From Methanomassiliicoccaceae archaeon (lineage in GTDB: Archaea; Thermoplasmatota; Thermoplasmata; Methanomassiliicoccales; Methanomassiliicoccaceae), in the NCBI GenBank assembly GCA_963728405.1, contig CAVSJV010000003.1:160001-224000 (forward strand): a stretch of DNA of 64,000 bases, written 5' to 3'. The notes beneath the pieces are model-generated. The model did not search any database. It had not been told where the DNA came from and saw only the letters and a program-made list of their open reading frames with translations. How positions within the stretch are numbered: the first letter of the stretch is position 1; each line of letters begins with the position of its first letter. Positions 1 through 63,411 of the stretch are shown piece by piece. The position numbers and the translations under genes were made by a program.

Positions 1-1026
1 CTGTCGCTAAGTGATTTTGGAACCGGTTTACCGCAGCCAGAGCAATCGATGCTCGTGTTCCTCGGGTCGACTTGAACGAACAGCTTACCAGCGTTTTCAG
101 CTTTGTAAGCTAGTTTTTGGTTCAGTGAGCTCCAAGACGCATCGGATATACTTCTAGCCAGTCTATGGTTCTTGACCAAATTTCCTGGTTGCAGTTTCTC
201 GGTGACGATGAGATCGTAGTTATTAACATACTCTCTCGATAGTTTGTGCTGAAAGTCGTTTCTCTGGTTCTGAACTCTTTCGTATTGTCTTGCTACAATT
301 ATCCGCTTCTTCTCCCTGTTTTTAGATCCTTTCTGCTTCCTGCTCAATCGTCGTTGCTCTTTTCTCAGTTTCTTCAGCGCTTGCTTTAGGTGTCGAGGAT
401 TCTCGACCTCGTGGCCTCCGCTGTCGACGATATAATGCTCCAGGCCGACATCGAGACCTACTGCTTTTTCGATATCAATGATGTCGAAGTCACTTGAGCC
501 GTTGTCGACGATGATGTATGCATACCACTTACCGGACGGCATGTGCTTGATCGTCACCTGCTTGATCTCGCCTTCGATCGGACGATGCAATCGTATCGGA
601 ATATCGCCAATCTTCGATAGATGCAACAGACCGAACTTGTCGTTCTTAGGCAGCAAATTAAATCCTGACTGATTGAAAGTGAAGCTCCTGAAACTGTGCT
701 CGCTCTTAAATCGTAGATTGCCTACCTTGCGACCACGCTTCTTCATCTCCCTTAGTGCGGCGAGGTTAGCGAAAAGGTGTACGACTTCATATTGGAGCGT
801 CTTTGCATAAACAGTTTCCAAATCCTTGTCGGTCTTCTTCCAGATCGGCAGCAGAGATTGCAACGTTGGTCGATTATGCTCGCCGCCGTTGTACGTTTCC
901 AGTAAAAGATTATAAGTGTACTGACAAACTCCTTTGACCCATAACAGCTTCCGCTCATCCTCTTTGTTGGGGTGGATACGGAATTTATAGGCGAACGTGT
1001 CAGAGCACCGATATTCTTGACGACAT
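1..1026 (-). CDS. tnpB: RNA-guided endonuclease TnpB (3' end runs out of the window; nearest ATG at 1026 is out of frame)
   Basis: Manual translation: FAYKFRIHPN, GRKVGNLRFKS, RuvC-I AVGLDVGL, RuvC-II LIVTEKL, ISDASWS, YKAENAGKLFVQVDPRNTSIDCSGCG. Confidence 0.88.
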
Positions 1027-1118
1027 TCCTATATAAACGTCGAACGGGGAGGTGGCCGAAAGTGCTAGTGCTCGCTCTCATCCCCCAGCTATCGCAGGGG
1101 ACTTCCCGCTCGAATATG
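1..1118 (-). mobile_element. IS200/IS605-family element (tnpB only), right end outside the window
   Basis: Left-end-like hairpin at 1082-1100 (minus strand TTAA|CATATTCGAGCGGGAAGTCCCCTGCGATAGCTGGGGGATGAGAG) upstream of tnpB; lower GC than the host genes. Confidence 0.8.
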
Positions 1119-1178
1119 TTAAATAAGGATAACTTGTTCCATGGTAAGTCAGATTCATCTTCATAAGAGGGTACTGGG

Positions 1179-7747: not shown

Positions 7748-8638
7748 TCACTTCTCCTGCCGGATCAGCTTGGCAGCGTTGTCCCCGGCCACGCAGCCCT
7801 GGCCTACCGCCCGTGCCAGCTGCCACGGCATGCCGGTTACGTCACCACAGGCGTACACATTCTCCATATCCGTCTTCATGTCCGCGTCCACGACTATCTT
7901 GCCGGAAGGGTCGGGCAGGAGTCCCAGTTCTAGGGCCAGGTCGGTGGATCCTTTGGCACCCAGAGCGATGAACACACCCTGGACGTCCAGCCTTGCGCAG
8001 CCTTCCAGCTCCAAGCCGACGACCGTCTTCTCGCCGATGATCATTAGCGGTTTGCAGTATGCGATTATCTCCACATTGGTCCTCCTGACCTTCTCCATCA
8101 TATATTCCGATGCTTTGAGCTCGGGAGCGACCCAATACACTTTCTCCGCGTAGTCGTTGAGCAGATGGGCCGATTCTGCCGCCTCGCTCGCCTCACCGAT
8201 CACCGCGACCGTCTTACCTTTGAAGAAGAGGGCGTCACATGACGCACAATAAGATACTCCTCTGCCAAGGTACTCTTTTTCGCCAGGGATATTGAGCTTG
8301 GCCCGAGAGATGCCCATGGCCAGAATGAGCGCCCTCGACCTGATCTCTTGAGCGTGATCGGTCAGGGCGACAAACACATCACCATCTTTGGTCAATTTGA
8401 TGACGTCTTCCTCGACCAGTTCGGCCCCGAACCGCTTGGCCTGCTCCTGGCCTATGCTCAAAATATCCTTTCCAGCGATGGACTCGATGCCCAGGTAGTT
8501 CTCCACTTCCGCCTTGTTGTAAAGCGGAGAGTTCTCGCTCTTGCCTAAAACAGCGACCTTTACCTTCTTCCTAGCCGCGTGGATGGCCGCCTGAAGTCCG
8601 GCCGGGCCCGGGCCGATAATCATGATGTCCGTCTCCAT
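7748..8638 (-). CDS. trxB: Thioredoxin-disulfide reductase
   Basis: GPGPAG, GRGVSYCASCD redox motif, VYACGDVTG. Confidence 0.88.
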   Translation of the reverse strand: METDIMIIGPGPAGLQAAIHAARKKVKVAVLGKSENSPLYNKAEVENYLGIESIAGKDILSIGQEQAKRFGAELVEEDVIKLTKDGDVFVALTDHAQEIRSRALILAMGISRAKLNIPGEKEYLGRGVSYCASCDALFFKGKTVAVIGEASEAAESAHLLNDYAEKVYWVAPELKASEYMMEKVRRTNVEIIAYCKPLMIIGEKTVVGLELEGCARLDVQGVFIALGAKGSTDLALELGLLPDPSGKIVVDADMKTDMENVYACGDVTGMPWQLARAVGQGCVAGDNAAKLIRQEK

Positions 8639-8724
8639 GGTGATGCCTTAAGAACAGTAGACCCAGGCTTCTTTTTATACCTTTGGGTGACGCCAGACCA
8701 TAAAGTAGAAACAAAAGGGTTTAA

Positions 8725-9120
8725 TCAGAGGTGGGCCTGCAGCCTCCTGCTGAGGTCATCCTTCGGCCTGGAGCCGACCAGCCGCTCGACCATTTCCCCA
8801 TCCTTGAACACCAGAAGGGTAGGTATGGCCTCAATCTGGAAGCGCATGGAGGTCTTGGGGTTCTGGTCAGTGTTTAGCTTTCCGAAGGCCACTTTCCCAT
8901 TCATGTCCTTGGCCAGACCATCGATCACCGGGGACATCATGCGACAGGGGCCGCACCAAGGGGCCCAGCAATCGATCAGGACGACCGAATATTTCTTAAT
9001 GAAATCGTTGAACGTGACATCGCTTACCTCGATGGGCTCGGACGGCCATTCCGCCCCCTGCGGACCGCCTTTCATCATCTCCTGCCTCTTCTTCTCACGT
9101 ATCTGCTCAATCTCGTCCAT
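8725..9120 (-). CDS. trxA: Thioredoxin
   Basis: WAPWCGPC motif. Confidence 0.93.
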   Translation of the reverse strand: MDEIEQIREKKRQEMMKGGPQGAEWPSEPIEVSDVTFNDFIKKYSVVLIDCWAPWCGPCRMMSPVIDGLAKDMNGKVAFGKLNTDQNPKTSMRFQIEAIPTLLVFKDGEMVERLVGSRPKDDLSRRLQAHL

Positions 9121-9291
9121 ATCACAATCTCCGTCGGTTGTGCATTCTATCTGCAAAACCGTATGGGCCGTCCCCGAATATATAAATTTCCGATGAAGCG
9201 TACGGTCCTCCCCTCATTCCGGCCATCAAAAGGGAGCTAATCGCTCACAAAAGGTTAAAACATAAAAGGGGATATCACGCCGGGATGTCTC

Positions 9292-9555
9292 ATGCTCGAG
9301 GAAGCGTCTGAGCTAATTGGATTGCAGGTCTACACGTCGAACGGAATCTTTCTGGGAAACGTCAATAACCTGGTCATAGACCTTGACAACAAGCGCGTGG
9401 ACGGGCTCTTCGTGAGCGAGACCAACCCCCTGTTGGTAGAGGAATCCAAGGCGGTCAATGTGCCGTTCCGCTGGATCCAGTCGGTAGGGGACATTATAAT
9501 CCTGAAGTATTTCCCGAAGAGAGTAACGTCCAAGAAGGCCGCGGCCAAGATCTGA
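9292..9555 (+). CDS. PRC-barrel domain protein, CdpB1-like cell-division protein
   Basis: LIGLQVYTSNGIFLGNV...VPFRWIQSVGDIIIL. Confidence 0.82.
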   Translation: MLEEASELIGLQVYTSNGIFLGNVNNLVIDLDNKRVDGLFVSETNPLLVEESKAVNVPFRWIQSVGDIIILKYFPKRVTSKKAAAKI

Positions 9556-9562
9556 GCCGCGC

Positions 9563-10159
9563 TTAGTCCCATTTTTTAATTTCTAGCTCAATATAGCGAG
9601 AGCAAGGGCCCTCCCATTTCGCGGTGCCCATATCCTTGATGATCTCGTCGATGTCCCGGCCGCAAAGTTCGGACAGCTCCCTGTGCATAGCCAGCATCCT
9701 CTGGCCAGTGCTCTCGAAACCTTTTCGGACAAAGTCCCGATAGGACTCCTGAGAGGTAAGATAGGCGGCATCGCTCACCAGATTATCCGCATGGCAAACG
9801 ATCTTCTCCTCCTTGGTCGAGGGCATGAAATCAAGGTCCGGTAACCCGATCTCGGCTGCCTCCTTTGGCGAGATGCCGGCCCCGATATGTTTCTGTATTA
9901 TCAACACCAGCGGTTCCGGAAGATGGAGCGCGCGGGCGATGGACGCGCCCTCCACGGCGTGACGGATGCCGTGCGTCCTGGCCCTCCCAAGATCGTGGAG
10001 AAGGCCCCCCGCCCGCACCAGTTCGACGTCCGCTCCGCATCTTTCGGCGATAGCTACGGCGAGGACCATGACCGTGCAGACATGCTTGATGACCCGATCG
10101 GCAGCACCCTGCGCTCTTAGTATGTCCAAGCACTCCTGCTCACTCGGTATCGTTGACAA
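9563..10159 (-). CDS. HD-domain metal-dependent phosphohydrolase
   Basis: GLLHDLGR, KHIGAGI, EEKIVCHADNL. Confidence 0.88.
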   Translation of the reverse strand: MSTIPSEQECLDILRAQGAADRVIKHVCTVMVLAVAIAERCGADVELVRAGGLLHDLGRARTHGIRHAVEGASIARALHLPEPLVLIIQKHIGAGISPKEAAEIGLPDLDFMPSTKEEKIVCHADNLVSDAAYLTSQESYRDFVRKGFESTGQRMLAMHRELSELCGRDIDEIIKDMGTAKWEGPCSRYIELEIKKWD

Positions 10160-10676: not shown

Positions 10677-11176
10677 TCCTTCAACCGCTCTATGCGATGG
10701 CCCCGGTAATCAAGACGGACCGACCGCTTGACCAGACTGCGCAGCATGGTCGAAGTTATGCCTAACTTCTCGGCGATGTCCCCGGCAAAGCGACCTTCCG
10801 GACCTACCTCTTTGTAAATCTGCTTCTCCAGCTTATCGAACTCCTCCTCAGGCATCATGGCAGCGGCCAGGACGTCGGAGATCTCATAGACGGGCCAGGA
10901 TGCGTTGATGTGAAAGGAGGTGTAATAGGTATGATAGGCCTTTTCAGGGAAAGAACCGCTCGTTGATTGCCACCTGGTCTCCACGAGCTTCATCTTTTCA
11001 AAAAACTTGAGGGCATCGGACCCTTCGGTTCCGAATTTGGCCTCGATATCTTTGGCGGTACGCCATTCTAGCGTTACCTCCTTGAGAACCTCCCTCTTAA
11101 CCTTGGTATCAACGGCACGCAACATCGGTACAAGCTCCGATGGCTCGTTGATTACCTTGATTCTGTTCATAGCCAA
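10673..11176 (-). CDS. Archaeal ArsR-like transcriptional regulator
   Basis: INEPSELVPML..LVETRW..PEKAYHTYY pattern; coupled to trm56. Confidence 0.75.
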   Translation of the reverse strand: MAMNRIKVINEPSELVPMLRAVDTKVKREVLKEVTLEWRTAKDIEAKFGTEGSDALKFFEKMKLVETRWQSTSGSFPEKAYHTYYTSFHINASWPVYEISDVLAAAMMPEEEFDKLEKQIYKEVGPEGRFAGDIAEKLGITSTMLRSLVKRSVRLDYRGHRIERLKE

Positions 11177-11291
11177 CCTAATTAGTTTGATAGAATATAA
11201 AGGACTACCGCCCCATTCTATCTTCTTGGGTTAAATTGAGGCTGTAAGAAGACCTCAAAGATTATTAACACCATTTGAAATACACCTGGCG

Positions 11292-11477
11292 ATGGCGGCC
11301 AAGCAGAAGCCAAAGAAGATCAAATATCAGTGCGCCATGACCGGAAAGGTCTTCGACTCTGAGGAAGAGGCCCTCAAGGGCTGCGAAGGCCCGTTCCAGG
11401 TATACATGGAGGGTTACGATCGGTACCCCACGAAGGGCTTCTTCGGCATCATTACCTGGCGCAAGAAAAAGAAGTGA
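11292..11477 (+). CDS. Small basic hypothetical protein
   Basis: 61-aa Lys-rich ORF after an AT-rich promoter-like stretch; host-like codons. Confidence 0.6.
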   Translation: MAAKQKPKKIKYQCAMTGKVFDSEEEALKGCEGPFQVYMEGYDRYPTKGFFGIITWRKKKK

Positions 11478-14609: not shown

Positions 14610-15098
14610 ATGACAACTTATCAACCGCCCGCACAACCGGCGCCCTATTACCCAGCGCCCCAGCGCCACCGCCCATTAGGTGTCACCATCATGGCCATCC
14701 TAGAGATCCTGGGCGGCCTGGGAGCGCTCGTCGTATCCCTTGCCATGTTCGTGGTCGCGGCATTGGCCACCAGCCAGGAGATCATCAACCAGCTGGGCCC
14801 GGACGTGCCACAATGGATCATTGACGCCGCCCCGGCCCTGTTCGCAGTGCTCGGAGCCGTGTTCCTTATCATCGCTCTCGTCTCCTTCCTTCTGGCATGG
14901 GGATTCTTGCGGGGGAAGAGATGGGCTCGGATGGTCGGTATCGTATTTGCGGCCATCAGCATCATCATGAACGTTGCCACCGCGATAATTTCCTTGAACG
15001 CCATCGGTCTCGCTACCCTCGGATTCTCGGTAATCATCCCGGTCGTCATCATCCTATATCTGATGATGCCCTCGGCCAAGGCCTGGTTCACTCAGTGA
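14610..15098 (+). CDS. Four-TM membrane protein
   Basis: RPLGVTIMAIL..GKRWAR..YLMMPSAKAWF pattern; pyrimidine-rich tract downstream. Confidence 0.75.
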   Translation: MTTYQPPAQPAPYYPAPQRHRPLGVTIMAILEILGGLGALVVSLAMFVVAALATSQEIINQLGPDVPQWIIDAAPALFAVLGAVFLIIALVSFLLAWGFLRGKRWARMVGIVFAAISIIMNVATAIISLNAIGLATLGFSVIIPVVIILYLMMPSAKAWFTQ

Positions 15099-17832: not shown

Positions 17833-17927
17833 GCCGTCGTAGCTCAGCTGGTAGAGCGTGTGACTGTTAATCCCTGAACAGGGGAACGGTCATCACAAGG
17901 TCAACGGTTCGAGCCCGTTCGACGGCG
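17833..17927 (+). tRNA. tRNA-Asn(GTT) with a 22-nt intron (17870-17891) at position 37/38
   Basis: Acceptor GCCGTCG/CGACGGC, anticodon stem TGTGA/TCACA, GTTCGAG T-loop, BHB motif (CTGT/ACGG helix), TATA-like TTAATA upstream. Confidence 0.93.
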
Positions 17928-17954
17928 CCTTCCCTCTTCTCTTTTACCATCGTT

Positions 17955-18920
17955 GAAGTTAGTTGAATAAATCCTCGCGCGCATCGCGTTCCACATCCAG
18001 AACTTGTTCTCGACCTCCGAGAACATGAGGTCGCGGCGTCGCGACCTCACCTCGCTGCCGAGCGTTCGCTTCACCGCCGAGAATACATACTCGACCATCC
18101 AGCGCAACCCGTATTGCGTAGCGCTCTTCCCAGCCATTCTGGCCGATGGCGTTCCGCTCCCTGACCGCTCGCGGTCGAGCGAACGTATGACCGCGACAAC
18201 GCATCGTCGCGTCGCTGGCGATCCTGATGCCTGCCTCGATGCCATGACGATGTCAGCAGATCGAAGTTGTCCAGCGTGTCGTAGCCGCCGTCGGCGAGCA
18301 CTCTTGTCACCTGAATTCCGCGAGCCAGCACCTGCTCGACGAGCTCGGCGAGCACGCTGTTGTTCGCCGACCTTATCGTCCGTCACCACGACGCCGAGCA
18401 CTTCGAGCGTCCCCACATCGACAGCGACGTGCGCCTTGACGAAGCCACGACGCTTGTGCCAGTGATCGCGCATCCATTCCCCCCGCAACGAAGGTCGAGA
18501 AGCCCGTCGAGTCGACTTCGCTGATCGTCGCTCGACGAGGCGGCACCACCGGTGCCGCATGAAGCGCCTGAAGGCGCTTCCAGATCGTCGTGAAGTCCGG
18601 CGCTTTCATGCCGAGCACCGAGAGCATGCGGCGCAGATGTCCCTCGGCCGCGCGCATGCTCAAGCGCAGTTCGACGATCAAGCGGCGGACCTCGTCCAGC
18701 ATCGCCGGCGGCAGCACGAACGGCCGCCCCCGCCGGCGGCCGTTGACCCGCCGCAGCTCGCTGCGCCAGCGAGCCGCGTCGACCGCGGCGCGCTCGCCGC
18801 GAGCAACGTATACTTCGTCGTTCGCATGCCAACGATTAACTATTCGTGAGTCAGACAAAGTCGAGTCTGGCATAGTTTTTACTATCGTTGTGACCGGGCG
18901 ACAAGCCACCACAAGGCATC
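17955..18920 (-). mobile_element. IS5-family (IS903-group-like) element with a frameshifted DDE transposase (about 17959-18873); boundaries approximate
   Basis: RRGRPF, PDFTTIWKR, DSTGF, GEW, KAHVAVD, LADGGYDT, VEYVFSAVKR; GTTGAATAAATC at 17962-17973 resembles the IS903 terminus; CpG-rich atypical composition. Confidence 0.85.
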
Positions 18921-19047: not shown

Positions 19048-19864
19048 TCAGGCTCGGTCGATCATACAGGAGGTTGTGTCCAGGGCGTCAAGCTTGGCCA
19101 TATCGCCATCGAACAGCTCGAAATCGAACACTTCCATATTCTCCTTCAAATGATCCCTAGAAGTGGCTTTGGGGATGACGATGGCCCCTTTCTGCAGCGC
19201 CCAGCGTAGCATAATCTGGGCCGGCCTCTTGCCGTATCCTTCGGCCAATTCCATTATGACCTTTTCCTGCAACCGATTCCCATGAGTGAGAGGACTATAC
19301 GCCTCGATGCGAATACCCTTACCTTTACAATAATTGATGAGCTCTTGCTCGTTAACGAAGGGGTTGAACTCGATCTGATTGATCGCCGGGACCTTCCCGG
19401 CCACTTTAAGAAGCTCTTCGATCTGGGAGATATCATAATTGCTAACTCCGATGGAACGACACCGTCCTGTTTCCAGAATCTCTTCCATTGCCCTCCACGT
19501 CTCGAGGCTTTTGCCGGAGACAGGCCAATGGATCAGGTAGAGATCGATATGGTCCATGTCCAAACGGGCCAGGCTGCGATCGAAGGCGGCTAGAGTACCC
19601 TCGTAGCCCTGCTCCCCTACTCCCACTTTCGTGGTGATGAAGAGGTCCCGACGACAGTTTTCCGCTCTCCCGCACCGCCCTGCCGATCTCTTCCTCGTTA
19701 TTGTACACGGAGGCGGTATCGATGAGCCGGTAGCCTATGTCCAAGGCATCTAGGACCGCCTGATAGCAACTCTCCCCTGCCATCTTCCAGGTCCCCAGGC
19801 CGATGACGGGCATTCTTACCCCGTCGTTCAGTTCCAATCTGGATGAGGACTTCAGCTCGGGCAT
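19048..19864 (-). CDS. Aldo/keto reductase (frameshift near 19650)
   Basis: MPVIGLGTW, GYRLIDTASVYNNE, DLYLIHWP, IGVSNY, IPKA. Confidence 0.9.
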
Positions 19865-19898
19865 TAGACATCCCCATCAATCATCGGGGCTAGTGGTA

Positions 19899-23773: not shown

Positions 23774-23870
23774 GGGCCCGTAGCTTAGTCCGGTGGAGCG
23801 TCAGGCTCATAGGAGTCCCTGTGGGACCTGAGATACCCGATGGTCGTCGGTTCAAATCCGACCGGGCCCA
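23774..23870 (+). tRNA. CAT-anticodon tRNA, probably tRNA-Ile2 (alternatively Met), with a 23-nt intron (23812-23834)
   Basis: Acceptor GGGCCCG/CGGGCCC with A73, typical of archaeal Ile tRNAs; BHB with CTCA/TGAG helix; GTTCAAA T-loop; TTTATA box about 30 nt upstream. Confidence 0.88.
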
Positions 23871-23919
23871 CCTTTTCTATCCAATACTTTGAATATAAGT
23901 ATCGTTCGGTCAGCAGTTG

Positions 23920-32113: not shown

Positions 32114-32662
32114 ACCCCCTGATTATCCCCAACATATTAATGAGTTTCAAGCTGACTACCGTATAAAGGCCTCCTCCCCGCTACCGGCTAGTTCCGCAGA
32201 TCGTCTCGAGGTGTGATCGATCGAGCGCAATGCTTACCAATCGGACCAATTCACCAAATGATAACGAGAGCATCTGACAAGGAAGGAAGAGCACGAGCGA
32301 TCAATGCTGCGTTAACGTATGCTTCGAGCAAATGCTCGAATAGAGCGGCGCCCAGAGACAGACGATCTCTTCGTTTTCTGTTCGATCGCATGCATTTTCT
32401 TGTTGTCGGAATCACATCCGTTCGGTGTGAGATCTATTTTCCACTCGATAGTAAGCATTCATATGAACATCGAAAAATAAAAAATAGAAAGAGTATACTC
32501 AGCTAGCGGTTCTTGCACGAAGGCCCCGCTATTGAAATGATATCCGAGATGCTGGACTTGGCCCGCTCAAATCCGACCAGGGGCATTCTTCGTATACATA
32601 TTACTCAAATTAATTTTGAAAAGTCCCAGGGCCTTAGGAGGCCTCGCCGTTCTACTCATCCA

Positions 32663-36533: not shown

Positions 36534-36579
36534 AAACATGGAGCGAGAAAGCCCACGAATTTATTCGTGGGAGTGTCAA
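36534..36579 (+). mobile_element. 46-bp single-hairpin IS200/IS605 derivative
   Basis: TTAC|AAACATGGAGCGAG-AAAG-CCCACGAATTTATTCGTGGG-AGTG-TCAA: IS608-type target, guide, perfect hairpin and right cleavage motif. Confidence 0.8.
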
Positions 36580-37455
36580 GAATCGCGGATCCCGATGTCC
36601 TCGGCGACGAACCGCTTCTTAAGTTCGGTGAGGAATTCTGAGACGATCTCGTCGCGCTTGTTGATCTCACTGTATCCATATACGGATAGCGATCCGGACC
36701 CGACTGCCCTGGACGTCGACCACGTTCACCTGGGGGTTCAGCATGCTGAGATCGCAGCTGGAACCGAACAGGGCGCGAATGGAGGGACGCTCGAAGAGCT
36801 TAACGACCGCTTTCTTCTCCTCCTCGAGCACAAGCGGCAGGATACGAGGATGGATGTCCGCCTCATCGAGGACGATCTTCCTTATCCGCTCGAGATCACT
36901 GACCGGAGCGATCCACATAGGGACCGTCAGTGCTACGAAGCCGGCCTTCGTGTAGTTGACCACCTTGCCATTGATTATCTGTGAGTTCGGGACTATCGCG
37001 ATGCGCCCGTCCACATCCCGTAGTACGGTGGACATCAAGGTGATGTCCTTGACCCGGGATACCCCGGTGGTCGGGGCCAGACCGACCTCTATCCAATCTT
37101 CCAGCTGGATCGGCCTTGTGATGGAGATGATGAGCCCGGACAACATGTTCTGGATGATCTGCTGGGAGGCGAAGGCGATGACCACGCCCACCAAGCCCAG
37201 GGAGATGACAAGGCCGGTAAGCTGCAGCTGGAGCAACTCGCTGAAACCAATGATAGCGGCCGTGCCGATGATGACATACTGGGCGGTCCGAGCCACTACC
37301 TTGGACAGCCGACGACCTACCTTCTCGTCCAGGTTCCTCCTGATGAGCATGCTGGCGACCTTCCCCAACAGCACGCCCACGATCAGGAGGAGCGCGAAGA
37401 GGATCGAACTTGTGGCCGTTATGCCACCGATGATGGGCTCCTCCAACCAGCTCAT
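36576..37455 (-). CDS. MscS-family mechanosensitive channel (frameshift near 36668)
   Basis: FASQQIIQNMLSG, DWIE, VPNS; second frame EINKRDEIVSEFLTELKKRF..DS*. Confidence 0.88.
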
Positions 37456-39945: not shown

Positions 39946-40026
39946 CCCAAACTCCTTTCTTCTTTATTTGGCGCCCTGGCCAGGGCATGCATGTTTATCT
40001 TGGGAGATCGCATTCACGTTGAGGCC

Positions 40027-40855
40027 ATGGCGGAGCTGTCCCTTGCTAGCCAGATAACTCTCAACAACGGAGTGACCATACCAAATCTGGGCCTGGGGGT
40101 GTTCCAGGTGCCCAACGACGCAGCCCATCGGATCGTTCTGCAGGCCCTGAACATCGGTTACCGGCACATCGACACGGCGGCCTATTACCAGAACGAGGAG
40201 GGAGTGGGCCGGGCGGTCCGGGAGAGCGGGGTTCCGAGGGAAGAGGTCTTCGTGACCACTAAGCTTTGGAACAGCGATCATGGGTTCAGGGAGGCCTTGA
40301 ACGCCTGCGACCGCAGCCTTAGGGCGCTCGGCCTGGACTATGTGGACCTGTATCTCATCCATTGGCCTCGCAGCGACCGTCGGGTGGAGACCTGGAGGGC
40401 CCTGGAGCGCATCCTGGACGAAGGGAAGGCCCGGGCCATCGGGGTGAGCAATTATCTCCCCCGGCATCTGGATGAGACGATAGCGAACGCCTCGGTCGTT
40501 CCGGCGATCGATCAGGTGGAATTCTCCCCATTCCTGTACCAAAAAGAGCTGCTGTCCTACCGTCCGGTCCAAGGGCATGGTGCTGGAAGCGTTCAGCCCG
40601 CTCACCAGGGGAAGGAAGCTGGGGGATCCCCGCCTCCTCGCCTTGGCCAAGGACTATGGGCGATCCCCGGCCCAGCTATTGATCCGGTGGGTCCTGCAGA
40701 AAGGAATGGTGGTCATTCCCAAGTCCGTTGACCCAGGCAGGCTCAAGGAGAACGCCAGCGTTTTCGATTTTGCCATCTCTGCCCGGGACGAGGGGGCGAT
40801 GGATTCCTGGAGCGAAGACTTCCATACCACCTGGAACCCTGCGGACATCCCCTGA
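40027..40855 (+). CDS. Aldo/keto reductase (frameshift near 40570)
   Basis: GYRHIDTAAYYQNE, TTKLW, DLYLIHWP, IPKS. Confidence 0.9.
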
Positions 40856-40920: not shown

Positions 40921-41728
40921 ATGACCGGACCGATGGAGGCCATCCGGAAGAAGTGCGAACAGCTCGACGTTCCGCTGGTAGGCGTAGCTCCGGTCGATCG
41001 GTGGGACGAGGAGCCGTTCCAACCATGGGTGCCGCCCGACTTCCGGCCGAGGAACATCTATCCAGAAGCAAGGTCGGTGGTCGTCATCGGCCTGCCGGTG
41101 GACCTGCCGGTGCTGGAAACGACCCCTTCCATCTTCTACCATGAGCTATACAACACGGTGAACCGGCTGCTGGACGAGAGCGCCTATCGCATCGCCGTCA
41201 TGCTCAACGGGATGGGCCATCCGTCCATCTTCACCCCCCGGGACGGGTATGGCATGCTGGACGTGCTGAAGGACCGCCCCCTGGCGTTCTTCTCCCACCG
41301 CCACGCGGCTTACCTTGCCGGCCTAGGTACGTTCGGGGTCAACAATATGCTCCTGACCCCGCGATACGGCCCCCGGGTGCGATTCACATCGATACTGACC
41401 ACGGCGCCACTGCCGCCCGACCCGATCATGGAGGAAGAACTGTGCATCAGGTGCATGCGCTGCGCCAGGTCCTGCCCTGCCCAGGCCCTGGAGGAGAAAG
41501 GGTACCCCGAGGGGCTCACCCTGAAGGACCGCTGCACAGAATACAATCTCGGCCTGGCCGAGCGGTACAGTCTCGCCCTGCGGGGTCTGCATCAAGGTCT
41601 GCCCAGTAGGAGCAGACCGTGGGGCCTTCGACCGCCGGGACGCCCGCATCTACGATGACCGGCAGAAGTTCGACAGGCATCATCGCGCCTGGGAACATGT
41701 CCGCGCCTATGGGGGAAAGCGCAGTTAG
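40921..41728 (+). CDS. Epoxyqueuosine-reductase-like Fe-S protein (frameshift near 41570)
   Basis: FSHRHAAYLAGLGTFG, YGPRVRF, CIRCMRCARSCP / CGVCIKVCP. Confidence 0.83.
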
Positions 41729-41821
41729 ATGTGAGGGGGCGGAGAAACCCCCAAATTTTCTGGACGAGTTGCGTTAAATCCTTTGGATTCCATCGAGAAA
41801 AAGGCATCAACTTACTGTTAA

Positions 41822-42082
41822 TCGAGGCTTCCTCCTCTCACTGGAGGATGAGGACAAGTTAACTCTGTCCGATTGGGTCTACGAATACGAGCTCTGTGGT
41901 TTGGAGATGGGCCGCGACCTGAACACCACCAATAACATACTCGCTAGGGCCGGACCGAAGTCACGCCTGTGGAGACGATGTAGTTCCTTCGCTATCGAAG
42001 GTCATTGTCGCTGAAGCAGGAACTATATGCTTGGTAAAGGCCGAGATGGGAATACCACGATCAAACCGTGGGAGGATGTCAC
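41822..42082 (+). mobile_element. Miniature IS200/IS605 derivative: degenerate left end, decayed tnpB 3' tip, omegaRNA-like right end
   Basis: TTAA then CCTCC/GGAGG hairpin and ATGAG; KLTLSDWVYEYELCGLEMGRDLNTTNNIL; GAAGCAGGAA; CCACG/CGTGG hairpin and GGAGGATGTCAC end. Confidence 0.8.
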
Positions 42083-42116
42083 AAAGCATTTTGTCCAGCT
42101 CCCCCTATGAGGTCGT

Positions 42117-42515
42117 ATGAAGCAGGAAGTGAAGGCGTTCCTGGACACCGCGGCGGGCAGGCGGGCAGCTCAGCTCCGGAAGCAGGACCCCGAGGTCAAA
42201 GCATCTTACGTCCTGGATGACCAGGCACCTCGAGCGGTGGTCAAGGCAGAGAAGGACGGCCAGGTGTTGGCCTTCGAGTTCCTGGAGACCGCCGAGACCG
42301 CGGCAATCCAGGCCAATATGGAGGACTATGTGTTCTCGGCCAACGAGTTCGGGGCAGTGACCGTGTGCCTGCCGGAAGCGAACTATCCCCGGGAGATCGC
42401 CTCCACCGTCCTCACCGATCTTCAAGGCCGCATCAGGAAGGGCGGGGCCACTGGCGATTTCAGGTTCTCCGGCTACGTCTACGACACCATGGGAAATTTC
42501 AAGAAGGTCAAGTGA
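42117..42515 (+). CDS. Hypothetical protein
   Basis: GAGGT SD, host-like codon usage. Confidence 0.7.
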   Translation: MKQEVKAFLDTAAGRRAAQLRKQDPEVKASYVLDDQAPRAVVKAEKDGQVLAFEFLETAETAAIQANMEDYVFSANEFGAVTVCLPEANYPREIASTVLTDLQGRIRKGGATGDFRFSGYVYDTMGNFKKVK

Positions 42516-43657: not shown

Positions 43658-44452
43658 ATGCAAACTTCGACCCAGCTTACCTTCGGTTCCAGGGTCCGGT
43701 TGAACAGCGGTGCTTCCATGCCCGTCCTCGGCTTCGGCACTTGGCAGCTTCGAGGCCAACAGGCCAGGGTGGCCGTGGAGACGGCCATCGACATCGGATA
43801 TCGACTGGTCGATACCGCCAGCAGATATGATAACGAGATCGAGGTGGGCGAGGCGGTTCGAAGGAGCGGCGTCCCTCGCGAGGGACTTTTCATAACGTCC
43901 AAGCTATGGAGCCATGAGCATGGCCACGCTGAGGCCAAGGCGGCCTGCAGGCGGAGCTTGGAACGACTGGGTCTGGAGCATCTAGACCTGTACCTCATCC
44001 ACTGGCCTTCCGGAGGGAGGAACGTGGAGACCTGGCAGGCCCTTATCGAGCTGTTACAGGAAGGGCGGACCAGGGCCATCGGGGTGAGCAACTTCAGCAT
44101 GGAGGATATGGCTCCCTTGATCGCTGACACTGGTGTCGTCCCTTCGGTTGATCAGGTGGAGTTCAACCCATACCATCATGATGAACACCTCCTCGTCGAA
44201 TGCGCCAAGGCCGGCATCCAGGTGGAGGCGTACAGCCCCTTGAACGGCATGGACCTGAAGGACAGAACGGTCGCGGGATCGGCCCTTCGTCATCACCGCA
44301 GCCCGGCGCAGGTGGTGCTCCGGTGGTGTCTCCAGAAAGGTACGGTCGTTCTGACAAAATCATCCCATGCCGGACGGATCGCCGAGAACTCCCAGATCTT
44401 CGATTTTGAACTTGCATCGGACGAGATGGCAGAGCTGGATCATCTCCAATAG
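43658..44452 (+). CDS. Aldo/keto reductase
   Basis: MPVLGFGTW, DTASRY, TSKLW, DLYLIHWP. Confidence 0.92.
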   Translation: MQTSTQLTFGSRVRLNSGASMPVLGFGTWQLRGQQARVAVETAIDIGYRLVDTASRYDNEIEVGEAVRRSGVPREGLFITSKLWSHEHGHAEAKAACRRSLERLGLEHLDLYLIHWPSGGRNVETWQALIELLQEGRTRAIGVSNFSMEDMAPLIADTGVVPSVDQVEFNPYHHDEHLLVECAKAGIQVEAYSPLNGMDLKDRTVAGSALRHHRSPAQVVLRWCLQKGTVVLTKSSHAGRIAENSQIFDFELASDEMAELDHLQ

Positions 44453-49855: not shown

Positions 49856-49857
49856 GG

Positions 49858-50187
49858 TTGACACGCCCACCAATGAAGTCATGGAATCCAGAGGTCACCG
49901 TCGTTCCGAGCGTACTTCCTGAGGACCGGGTTCGCTGTCGCCGGGGGCAGACCTACATCTTTGGCATCCTTTGACAGTTATGCCGCCGGCCCGCTAAGCG
50001 AACTTCACCGCCCACCGGGCTTTCACTAACTCAGCACTGAAGTCTCGTCCGTGCTTGACCTTGAAGGTCAGGAGCGTCCACTTCCTCGATGGTCCGAGGC
50101 TATAAACGCATTACGGGAGGCCACTGAAAGTACTACTTATCGCAATTCATCCCACGATTCAAATCGTGGGCTTTCTTGCTCAAGGCC
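49858..50187 (-). mobile_element. 330-bp internally deleted IS200/IS605 element with a decayed tnpB 5' fragment
   Basis: Minus strand TTAC|GGCCTTGAGCAAG-AAAG-CCCACGATTTGAATCGTGGG left end; LLTFKVKHGRDFSAELVKAR..SKDAKDVGL..VLRKYARN; degenerate right hairpin ending GTGTCAA. Confidence 0.82.
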
Positions 50188-52741: not shown

Positions 52742-52778
52742 CGTCCCATCTAGATTGTTACCGTTGACCGGTAATTAA

Positions 52779-52901
52779 TGTTGTGCGAGCGGATGGCCTC
52801 TAGAATGAGCTAGGGTGAGAGGGGGAGCATTTTCGAAAATTCCTCGGGAGACGGTGGTGGATGCTGCAGGAAGCTCCGTCCCTGAGATCGGGGCAATTCA
52901 C
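52779..52901 (+). mobile_element. About 120-bp degenerate IS200/IS605 miniature (left end joined to right end)
   Basis: TTAA|TGTTGTGCGAGCGG..TGAGAG resembles the left end at 1075-1118; right end GCAG-GAAG-CTCCG/CGGGG-CAAT-TCAC. Confidence 0.6.
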
Positions 52902-62193: not shown

Positions 62194-63411
62194 ACTCCGG
62201 GCGATAGGAAGCCCACCATTAAAATCGTGGGAGGAATCGTGCCAAATCCTATTACGTATTGAAGCATATCATCCCTCCGTGCTCCTGACTCACAAGGTCA
62301 AACTGCTCCCTACCGAGGAGCAGGGGGCCGCTCTGCTGGAGACCATGGAACGGTTCAACGAGGCTTGTGACTTCGTTGCTGTCGCTGCATTCCGTATCCA
62401 GTCTGCCAATAAGATGCGCCTCCAGAAAGAGGTCTACTATGAGCTGAGGGAGCGCTATGAGCTCCCTGCTCAACTGGCCATCCGCGCTATAGCCAAGGTC
62501 TGCGAGGCGTACAAGCACGACAAAACCATCCGGCCTAGCTTCGACAAGCATGGTGCGGTGGTCTACGACCAGCGCATCCTGTCTTGGAAAGGTCCAGATC
62601 GTGCATCCTTGGTGACTGTTTACGGAAGAACGATCATGCCCTTCCTCTCTTGCGATTATTACGAATCGAGGAAAGACATCGTTCGCTGCCAGGCAGACCT
62701 TATCTTGCAGAACGGTGTTTTTTACTTGTGCGTCATCGTCGAAGTTCCCGAGGCCGATGAGATTAAGCCACTTGATGCTCTCGGTGTCGATCTCGGCATT
62801 GTCAACATCGCGGTCGATTCCGACGGTGAGGTTCATTCCGGTGAAGCCATCTGTAAAACTAGAAAACGCAATGCCAAGCTGTGCTCCACTCTGCAATCCT
62901 GTGGTTCGAGGTCTGCTAAAAAGCATCTCAAGAAGCTTTCCGGTAAAGAAAAGAAGTATCAAAGGGACATTAACCACTGCATCTCCAAGCGTATCGTCGC
63001 GAAGGCCAAAGACACGAAGAGAGCGGTCGTCCTCGAAGATTTGGGGGGCATCCGTTCTCGGACTGCGGTTTCTAAGGCACAGCGTCGCGACCTCCACGCT
63101 TGGGGATTCCACCAACTCCGCTCTTTTGTTGAGTACAAGGCGAAAATTGCTGGAATCCCAATAGTTTTCGTCGACCCAAGAAACACCTCGCGAACTTGCC
63201 CAGTCTGCGGGTGCGTTGACCGGAAGAACAGAAAGACCAGAGATAATTTCGAGTGTGTTCGGTGCGGGTTCGCTGGTCTGGCCGACCACATAGCAGCTAT
63301 TAACATAGCTGCCGGGGGTCGAGTCAACGACCCTATCGTGACGGGGGATTTTTTGAGCCATGTTGGTCCACCTCAGTCGCAAGCCCACAGAGTCATTCAT
63401 GGGTAGTTGAC
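62194..63411 (+). mobile_element. Complete tnpB-only IS200/IS605 element
   Basis: TCAC|ACTCCGGGCGATAG-GAAG-CCCAC/GTGGG left end; CAAG-CCCA/TGGG-TAGT-TGAC right end. Confidence 0.88.
62279..63406 (+). CDS. tnpB: RNA-guided endonuclease TnpB, 375 aa, catalytic triad intact
   Basis: LGVDLG, VVLEDL, CPVCG/CVRCG zinc finger, ADHIAAINI. Confidence 0.93.
   Translation: MLLTHKVKLLPTEEQGAALLETMERFNEACDFVAVAAFRIQSANKMRLQKEVYYELRERYELPAQLAIRAIAKVCEAYKHDKTIRPSFDKHGAVVYDQRILSWKGPDRASLVTVYGRTIMPFLSCDYYESRKDIVRCQADLILQNGVFYLCVIVEVPEADEIKPLDALGVDLGIVNIAVDSDGEVHSGEAICKTRKRNAKLCSTLQSCGSRSAKKHLKKLSGKEKKYQRDINHCISKRIVAKAKDTKRAVVLEDLGGIRSRTAVSKAQRRDLHAWGFHQLRSFVEYKAKIAGIPIVFVDPRNTSRTCPVCGCVDRKNRKTRDNFECVRCGFAGLADHIAAINIAAGGRVNDPIVTGDFLSHVGPPQSQAHRVIHG

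Follow-up and report, generated by a model that had tools for sequence, protein, structure and literature searches.

A 261-bp tnpB-derived element in a Methanomassiliicoccaceae archaeon, most likely a decaying relic with an inherited guide-RNA fold

We analyzed a 64-kb stretch of DNA from a Methanomassiliicoccaceae archaeon, hereafter the window. Positions 41822-42082 (+) hold a 261-bp element that, as read from its sequence, is an internally deleted, non-autonomous IS200/IS605 copy of the IS1341 type (tnpB-only). The element resembles a PATE or a MITE, and it is a fresh archaeal case of an already published kind, the gene-less elements with guide RNAs (PATEs). Most likely (probability about 0.68) it is an inert, slowly decaying relic whose fold is inherited and not currently selected.

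The element consists of a left-end hairpin, a decayed tnpB 3' end and a right end. It contains no intact protein gene, its sole ORF being 37 aa of remnant codons, and its GC content is ~0.5, with flanks of 0.6-0.66. Upstream lies a gene with a 4Fe-4S domain (40921-41658, +), and downstream an unnamed ORF of 132 aa (42117-42515, +). Three independent homology signals fell on the same ~260 bp, namely protein, a family covariance model and a curated Rfam model, and homology to the TnpB guide scaffold is well supported. The original prediction had described a protein-less miniature TnpB derivative with a degenerate left end joined directly to a tnpB 3' remnant and a 3' part homologous to the omegaRNA scaffold. 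Our analysis agreed on all of these points, with the named features found where they had been placed and the scaffold homology recovered by covariance model R1, by RAGATH-18 and by the family structure. The features, with the evidence for each in brackets, are as follows.

41806-41821 (+): left flank with the candidate target-adjacent motif (TAM), either CTTAC at 41811-41815 or TTAA at 41818-41821 (left-end alignment)
41822-41858 (+): left-end remnant, a hairpin of CCTCC 41831-41835 and GGAGG 41843-41847 with loop TCTCACT, then ATGAGGAC (left-end alignment)
41862-41951 (+): 30 codons left over from the zinc-finger and RuvC-III region of tnpB, LSDWVYEYELCGLEMGRDLNTTNNILARAG (tblastn, translation)
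41944-41963 (+): remains of hairpin P1, CTAGGGCCGGACCGAAG, with the loop and part of the 3' arm gone (R1: 5-position gap, non-pairs)
41954-42022 (+): final tnpB codons (TPVE...KQE tail) in a shifted frame, overlapping the RNA scaffold (second tblastn HSPs, translation)
41966-42020 (+): scaffold core, with P2 41966-41970/42016-42020, P3 41974-41980/42003-42009 and P4 41986-41991/41996-42001 (R1, folds, RAGATH-18)
42030-42045 (+): possible extra hairpin CTTGG/CCGAG with loop TAAAGG (read from the sequence; absent from minimum-free-energy folds)
42055-42071 (+): terminal (right-end) hairpin CCACG/CGTGG, 42055-42059/42067-42071, loop ATCAAAC (folds; aligns with the hairpins of related loci L022, L037 and L065)
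42072-42082 (+): scaffold tail GAGGATGTCAC, the right boundary (identity with the L022 right end)
42083-42102 (+): flank that would act as guide, AAAGCATTTTGTCCAGCTCC (follows from the right boundary)

Left end and tnpB remnant

Both the hairpin and the GGATGAG motif of the left-end remnant could be aligned with the family left end, GAGCGGGAAGTCCCC..GGGGGATGAGAGCGAGC. Missing beyond them is the block ...GCACTTTCGG..CCCGTTCGACGTTTATATA, where intact elements have their TATA-like box, and the element has no such box of its own. In relatives, TTTAAC or TTAAC stands 5-7 nt ahead of the left-end core GAGCGGG; both candidates here are mis-spaced, and the left boundary and TAM, as placed by alignment, are ambiguous.

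For the coding remnant, the tblastn queries were 121 TnpB proteins: P0001, the partial protein from the window, plus the 120 best relatives of it in the database. At 41862-41951, 56 of the 121 queries matched at E<0.1 (best P0011, 53% over 30 aa, E 2.5e-4). In a different frame, P0117, P0112 and P0107 each gave one further HSP, starting at 41951/41954/41957 and ending at 42022. The prediction of a remnant was therefore sound and its length too short: it had counted the last ~30 tnpB codons, and ~55 survive, the tail going on in the shifted frame of 41954-42022. Translated in one frame, 41853-41960 reads DKLTLSDWVYEYELCGLEMGRDLNTTNNILARAGPK. Pfam assigned 0 families to the 61-aa remnant translation.

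Seven residues were taken as family invariants from an alignment of 25 TnpB relatives (H340, C342, C345, R351, D352, I359, L360). Two of them, H340 and C342 (the first Cys), are Tyr in the remnant, and the other five are kept; the remnant also has NTT where relatives have NAA or NAS. The coding decay noticed earlier (one zinc-finger Cys lost, NAA changed to NTT) is thus real, and the change of His to Tyr adds to it. By type the remnant peptide is CGLE.DRD.N..NIL.RA, and its nearest peptides are CGLEMDRDYNSAINILKRA (L014) and CGLELDRDLNAARNIL (Hadarchaeota loci), not the CGLSLSRDHNASINIL type of the database protein P0019.

A second copy of the element was found neither within the 64-kb window nor in 80 related loci. 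Blastn of 41800-42110 gave one 27-nt chance match (E 0.9) in a plasmid collection and no match in a phage collection, and tblastn of the four flanking proteins against the 80 loci gave no match.

The family guide RNA and what this locus keeps of it

The alignment of 25 TnpB relatives led to 80 loci from genome contigs, the window's own genome not being among them. Most came from archaeal metagenome-assembled genomes (Methanomassiliicoccales, Aenigmatarchaeota, Hadarchaeota, Woesearchaeota and others). The 3' ends of 48 full-length elements were alike from the zinc finger to a sharp shared end, ...GGGGTAGTTCAC, beyond which the similarity stops. RNAalifold folded these 48 right ends with 30 pairs, 25 of which showed compensatory double changes. 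The family fold opens with hairpin P1 and has a closing helix P2 (CCUGU/GCAGG), a further helix P3, a hairpin P4 that varies and a terminal hairpin P5, after which comes the tail UAGUUCAC; P2 covaries in the family between CCUG/CAGG and CUUG/CAAG. This fold matches what is expected of a TnpB omegaRNA scaffold, which shares sequence with the tnpB 3' end and extends as far as the right end, with the guide in the flank. Rfam, run on 10 related loci, placed no family at its cut-off on any right end. The covariance model R1 built from the alignment (113 positions and 30 pairs from the 48 right ends) defines a well-supported guide-RNA structure, with 25/30 pairs covarying, for a TnpB family across several archaeal lineages.

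Applied to all 64 kb of the window with its filters off, R1 returned 15 matches at E<=10, the best of them at 41944-42058 (+) with 32.4 bits and an E of about 2e-5, E values being rough after a shortened calibration. Homology between the element and the right ends of full elements was thereby found, with the element as the top match in the window. Its score is modest by the standard of the family: cognate right ends in the 80 loci scored 41-122 bits, the element lying far below, and of 75 R1 matches in the loci 74 scored higher and only L074 5474-5623 (30 bits) scored lower. An nhmmer profile of ten Methanomassiliicoccales right ends left the element undetected at E<=1, which indicates that a structure-aware model is needed.

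The four nested stems that had been predicted were all present at their predicted places and in minimum-free-energy folds. These are, besides the terminal hairpin, P2 CCTG(T)/(G)CAGG, P3 GACGATG/CATTGTC and P4 CCTTCG/CGAAGG. In the R1 alignment P2 forms 5/5 pairs, and P3 and P4 pair fully through bases unlike the family consensus. The Rfam model RAGATH-18 (RF03064) matched 41966-42022 with 24.6 bits, against a cut-off of 44.9 (E 0.01-0.026), and its conserved letters CCUGUGGAG...UGAAGCAGGAA are all present in the element. At gathering cut-offs, Rfam found two tRNAs only in the whole window. At the place of the possible extra hairpin, intact L022 elements have a two-hairpin 3' domain. We also considered a pseudoknot pairing the CUCUAC loop with GUAG of the tail and dropped it for its clash with predicted helices. 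Folding energy was not unusual for 41860-42082 (z = +0.53, 137/200 shuffles folding as well) or for 41944-42082 (z = -1.10, 21/200), and we did not count it as evidence.

Hairpin P1 is broken. Of the 48 relatives, 46-48 form any given one of its 6 pairs. Here P1 reads CTAGGGCCGGACCGAAG as against CTAGGGCAGGAACTGCCCGAAG in the closest relatives, L019 and L028, nine bases having become four with no loop. The net 5-base deletion coincides exactly with the shift in reading frame, which implies that P1 was lost after coding function or together with it. The claim that the scaffold was retained thus stands for P2, P3, P4 and the terminal hairpin and fails for P1, which this deletion destroyed.

We then counted how many family-conserved columns (>=80%) the element keeps in each part. 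The counts were 19/24 in the coding-only part, 8/12 in P1, 24/33 in the core and 7/15 in the 3' domain, against a mean of 0.92-0.93 in every part for family members under leave-one-out; the comparison rests on a MAFFT alignment that is uncertain near P1 and mixes decay with descent from an unsampled subgroup. The RNA part is no better preserved than the coding remnant, a result of the kind that the original prediction itself had named as refuting it (stem positions as mutated as the coding remnant).

Right end, would-be guide and candidate partners

The element ends GGGAGGATGTCAC at 42082. Over its last 17 nt (CCGTGGGAGGATGTCAC) it matches the L022 copy ending at 11333 without a difference, and 41 nt at the right end are ~80% identical to the L022 right end ending at 14789. 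The 3' module as a whole (42044-42082, GAGATGGGAATACCACGATCAAACCGTGGGAGGATGTCAC) is a ~80% match to the right ends of L022, L037 and L065, closing with GAGGATGTCAC and not TAGTTCAC; the pattern GRGGATGTCAC occurs in 5/80 loci. A right boundary at 42058, the end of the R1 global alignment, was rejected, first because R1 stops likewise inside the two-hairpin ends of intact L022 elements, and second because the 42044-42082 module aligns with the L022, L037 and L065 ends. Given an L022-like two-hairpin end with R1 stopping inside it, we placed the right boundary at 42082. This boundary, and hence the predicted guide start at 42083, agrees with the point where full-length relatives stop being alike.

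Locus L022, a Bathyarchaeota contig, itself has right ends at 8196-8336, 11084-11333, 14669-14789 and 17971-18091, with two tail types, GAGTTCAC and GGATGTCAC, within 10 kb. It includes a solo GGATGTCAC terminal module ~100 nt past the end of an intact element.

The would-be guide contains a T4 run at 42089-42092, 7-10 nt in. Its first 16 nt had no other match in the window at <=3 mismatches. The original prediction had drawn attention to the guide lying just upstream of the 42117 gene; this position carries no added meaning, since in the family the guide is always the flank. Between the 40921-41658 gene and the element, at 41735-41762 (+), is a terminator-like G+C hairpin, GGGGGCGGAGAAACCCCC, followed by a T-run, AAATTTTCTG. 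Archaeal RNA polymerase terminates at oligo-T. Read-through into the element is therefore doubtful, and transcription reaching the T4 run in the guide could likewise end early.

Two TnpBs are encoded in the window. That at 1-1028 (-) has OrfB_IS605, Cas12f1-like_TNB and HTH_OrfB_IS605 domains, and its C-terminus is cut by the window edge. P0019, a 100%-identical database protein, supplies the C-terminus, ...KQEAPSEG, of peptide type CGLSLSRDHNASINIL, and close relatives of this TnpB (81-100% identical to P0002) have right ends closing GGGGTAGTTCAC. We infer that its scaffold tail is UAGUUCAC / TAGTTCAC, as against GGAUGUCAC in the mini-element. The tail of the mini-element is of the GGATGTCAC type, a different subgroup from the 1-1028 TnpB. 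The TnpB element at 1-1140 (-) has a left-end hairpin, a TTTATATA box and a TTTAAC flank at 1118-1123, and its right end and guide lie beyond the window.

The second full-length TnpB element, 62200-63411 (+), belongs to another subgroup and encodes P0122 (375 aa, gene 62279-63406, OrfB_IS605 and Cas12f1-like_TNB). Its left-end hairpin (62212-62237) resembles the right-end hairpin of the mini-element, and its right end, GGGTAGTTGAC at 63411, holds the gene's own stop codon and abuts the stop of a Complex1_49kDa gene on the opposite strand.

A cognate TnpB with a GGAUGUCAC-type tail is absent from the window, both window TnpBs having other tails (that of 1-1028 presumably so). Y1_Tnp was searched for in the 64-kb window and found in 0/60 ORFs of at least 150 aa and 0/143 stop-to-stop frames of 100-164 aa (203 ORFs in all).

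Relic or working guide RNA

On the preferred reading, a deletion fused some 40 nt from the start of the left end to the last ~55 tnpB codons. Apart from the right-end hairpin, most of what is left corresponds to the part from which intact elements make their TnpB guide RNA (omegaRNA/reRNA) by transcription and processing. A later net 5-base deletion destroyed P1, and the element's own TATA-like box is gone; the RAGATH-18-like core (P2-P4), the terminal hairpin and the tail can still fold. Were the RNA made and taken up by a matching TnpB, it would direct cutting of the TAM-flanked empty donor site beginning AAAGCATTTTGTCC. Cutting of this kind is the homing role already known, and the only gain would be that the element itself is retained.

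That the element is now an inert relic is suggested by P1 being broken at the frameshift, by poorly kept conserved columns, by a single copy and no Y1 transposase in the window, by the upstream hairpin with its T-run and by an ordinary folding energy. Several observations pull the other way. P2-P4 pair perfectly via non-consensus bases, the RAGATH-18 letters are all present, and the 17-nt identity with a right end from another phylum (L022) exceeds what uniform decay would lead one to expect. Moreover, the divergence may stem largely from an unsampled parent subgroup, in which case column retention would overstate the decay, and the window covers only 64 kb of the genome, the rest of which may contain more copies, a TnpA and a cognate TnpB.

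The original prediction had proposed a stand-alone guide-RNA locus in working order. This would be a PATE with an omegaRNA, transcribed from a promoter in the flank and loaded in trans by a GGAUGUCAC-type TnpB encoded elsewhere, which would protect the mini-element by cutting the empty donor site. We consider this unlikely. It agrees with the intact core stems, terminal hairpin and tail, and with complete TnpB-less copies that have a TATA-like box in related genomes, L001 2410-2640(-) and L009 5460-5679. It also has precedents. In Geobacillus stearothermophilus, PATE-like gene-less IS200/IS605 elements have both ends, and many of them encode guide RNAs that would depend on another element's TnpB; use in trans is proposed for them (PMC10055086). 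In Halobacterium salinarum, IS1341-type sotRNAs and PATE-derived intergenic RNAs are reported to be transcribed, one of them from a truncated 120-bp IS1341 pseudogene (PMC4615843). Against a working guide stand the destroyed P1, the deleted TATA-like box, the hairpin and T-run upstream, the T4 run in the guide and an RNA part kept no better than the coding one; further, the R1 score is under 74/75 locus matches, and neither window TnpB has such a tail.

The likenesses to these systems are partial. The G. stearothermophilus PATEs are also minimal, with both ends and no protein gene; they are multi-copy with intact ends and a known TnpA adjoining (PMC10055086), whereas here there is one decayed copy in 64 kb, P1 is broken and the window has no TnpA. 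The H. salinarum sotRNAs are likewise archaeal, derive from the tnpB 3' end and have a right-end-like terminal hairpin (PMC4615843); transcription is shown there, and the host lineage differs, being Methanomassiliicoccales here. RAGATH-18 is described as the core of the IS607 TnpB reRNA, which lies outside the coding sequence and has IS607 TnpB as its partner (PMC11061315). Its closing helix and the letters CCUGUGGAG...UGAAGCAGGAA are common to both. The score here is below cut-off, however, and part of the scaffold lies within the tnpB 3' end, an arrangement found in IS605/IS1341 elements.

Among the related loci, R1 found TnpB-less copies with a complete scaffold at L001 2410-2640(-), 81 bits, and L009 5460-5679(+), 74 bits. 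Their build is that of the present element, in which tnpB is missing and the left-end hairpin leads straight into scaffold and right end; unlike it, they keep P1, the TATA-like box and the UAGUUCAC tail, whereas the element here has 32 bits and lacks P1 and the box. Further gene-less copies are a tandem solo scaffold at L001 11251-11354 (+), 62 bits, and the L074 5474-5623 match (30 bits).

A more ambitious idea, which we regard as improbable, is that the mini-element is a naturally minimized omegaRNA in which P1 is dispensable and which a GGAUGUCAC-type TnpB elsewhere would load. It would then be part of a wider Methanomassiliicoccales habit (52760-52901, L001 2410-2640, L009 5460-5679) of spreading as parasites of other elements' TnpB. 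If the RNA were made and loaded, it would reveal which scaffold parts are dispensable, which bears on trimming TnpB guide RNAs for genome editing.

Co-option of the relic into the promoter or 5' leader of the 42117 gene, 35 nt downstream, is quite improbable. The element does occupy most of the intergenic space before this gene, contains an A+T-richer stretch and has a CTATATGC box at about 42022-42029. A promoter scan, with a bacterial-type model in what is an archaeal host, gave 0 sites, though, and intergenic insertion is the default for such elements.

More doubtful still is the idea that the 1-1028 TnpB, the partner that had been suggested (as 1-1026), is the specific user of this guide locus in trans. 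Both belong to the same broad superfamily of TnpB and right ends, and the TTTAAC at 1118-1123 (-) in the left flank of the 1-1140 element contains TTAA. The remnant peptide and the tail of the mini-element are nonetheless those of a different subgroup. The tail of the 1-1028 TnpB would be of the GGGGTAGTTCAC type, judging from the P0019 end and close relatives, versus GGGAGGATGTCAC here; the mini-element has an extra hairpin and no P1; and the Methanomassiliicoccales right-end nhmmer profile misses it at E<=1.

Chance resemblance with no real feature behind it, which a folding energy no better than shuffles and the silence of Pfam on the 61-aa remnant would allow, is scarcely credible in view of the three homology signals, the 17-nt L022 identity and the alignment of the left end with those of the family.

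On the preferred reading, that of a decaying relic, the locus is an archaeal example of a known pattern, IS200/IS605 elements shrinking to gene-less units that retain the guide-RNA region. For annotation, the proper label for the ~260 bp is TnpB-element relic, not novel RNA gene.

Several other small elements were noticed. A separate TnpB-less, scaffold-only lineage with its own short P3/P4 occurs in three genomes: window 52760-52901 (+), L001 2410-2640 (-), L009 5460-5679 (+) and L001 11251-11354 (+). The window copy is truncated (R1: 19.9 bits, E 0.012) and ends GCAATTCAC at 52901. A gene-less mini-element at 49857-50185 (-), undetected by R1, has a left end 100% identical over 42 nt to L004 8457-8498, is 67% alike over 172 nt to L004 8934-9104 and ends ...GGTGGGCGTGTCAAC. 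The full element in L004 has a Y1 transposase at 8525-8926 (Pfam 1.4e-40), a 320-aa TnpB at 8982-9944 and the end ...CGTGGGAGTGTCAAC. At 36541-36585 (+) is a solo hairpin, GAGCGAGAAAGCCCACGAATTTATTCGTGGGAGTGTCAAG, 88% complementary to 50150-50181; it looks like the 5' half of a left end fused to the 3' half of a right end from the same IS605-type family.

Elsewhere in the window, the two tRNA matches, 17833-17927 and 23774-23870 (+), span 95 and 97 nt against a 71-position model, which suggests intron-bearing archaeal tRNA genes. A repeat links 23852-23883 to 32567-32598 and may be a tRNA 3' fragment. Adjoining the tRNA at 17833-17927 is a DDE transposase, 17904-18912 (-), split over two ORFs (DDE_Tnp_1 and DDE_Tnp_1_5). 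Two aldo/keto reductase genes, 39991-40855 (+) and 19051-19876 (-), each appear split into overlapping ORFs in different frames, and these splits may be frameshifts or assembly errors; an intact aldo/keto reductase paralogue lies at 43658-44452.
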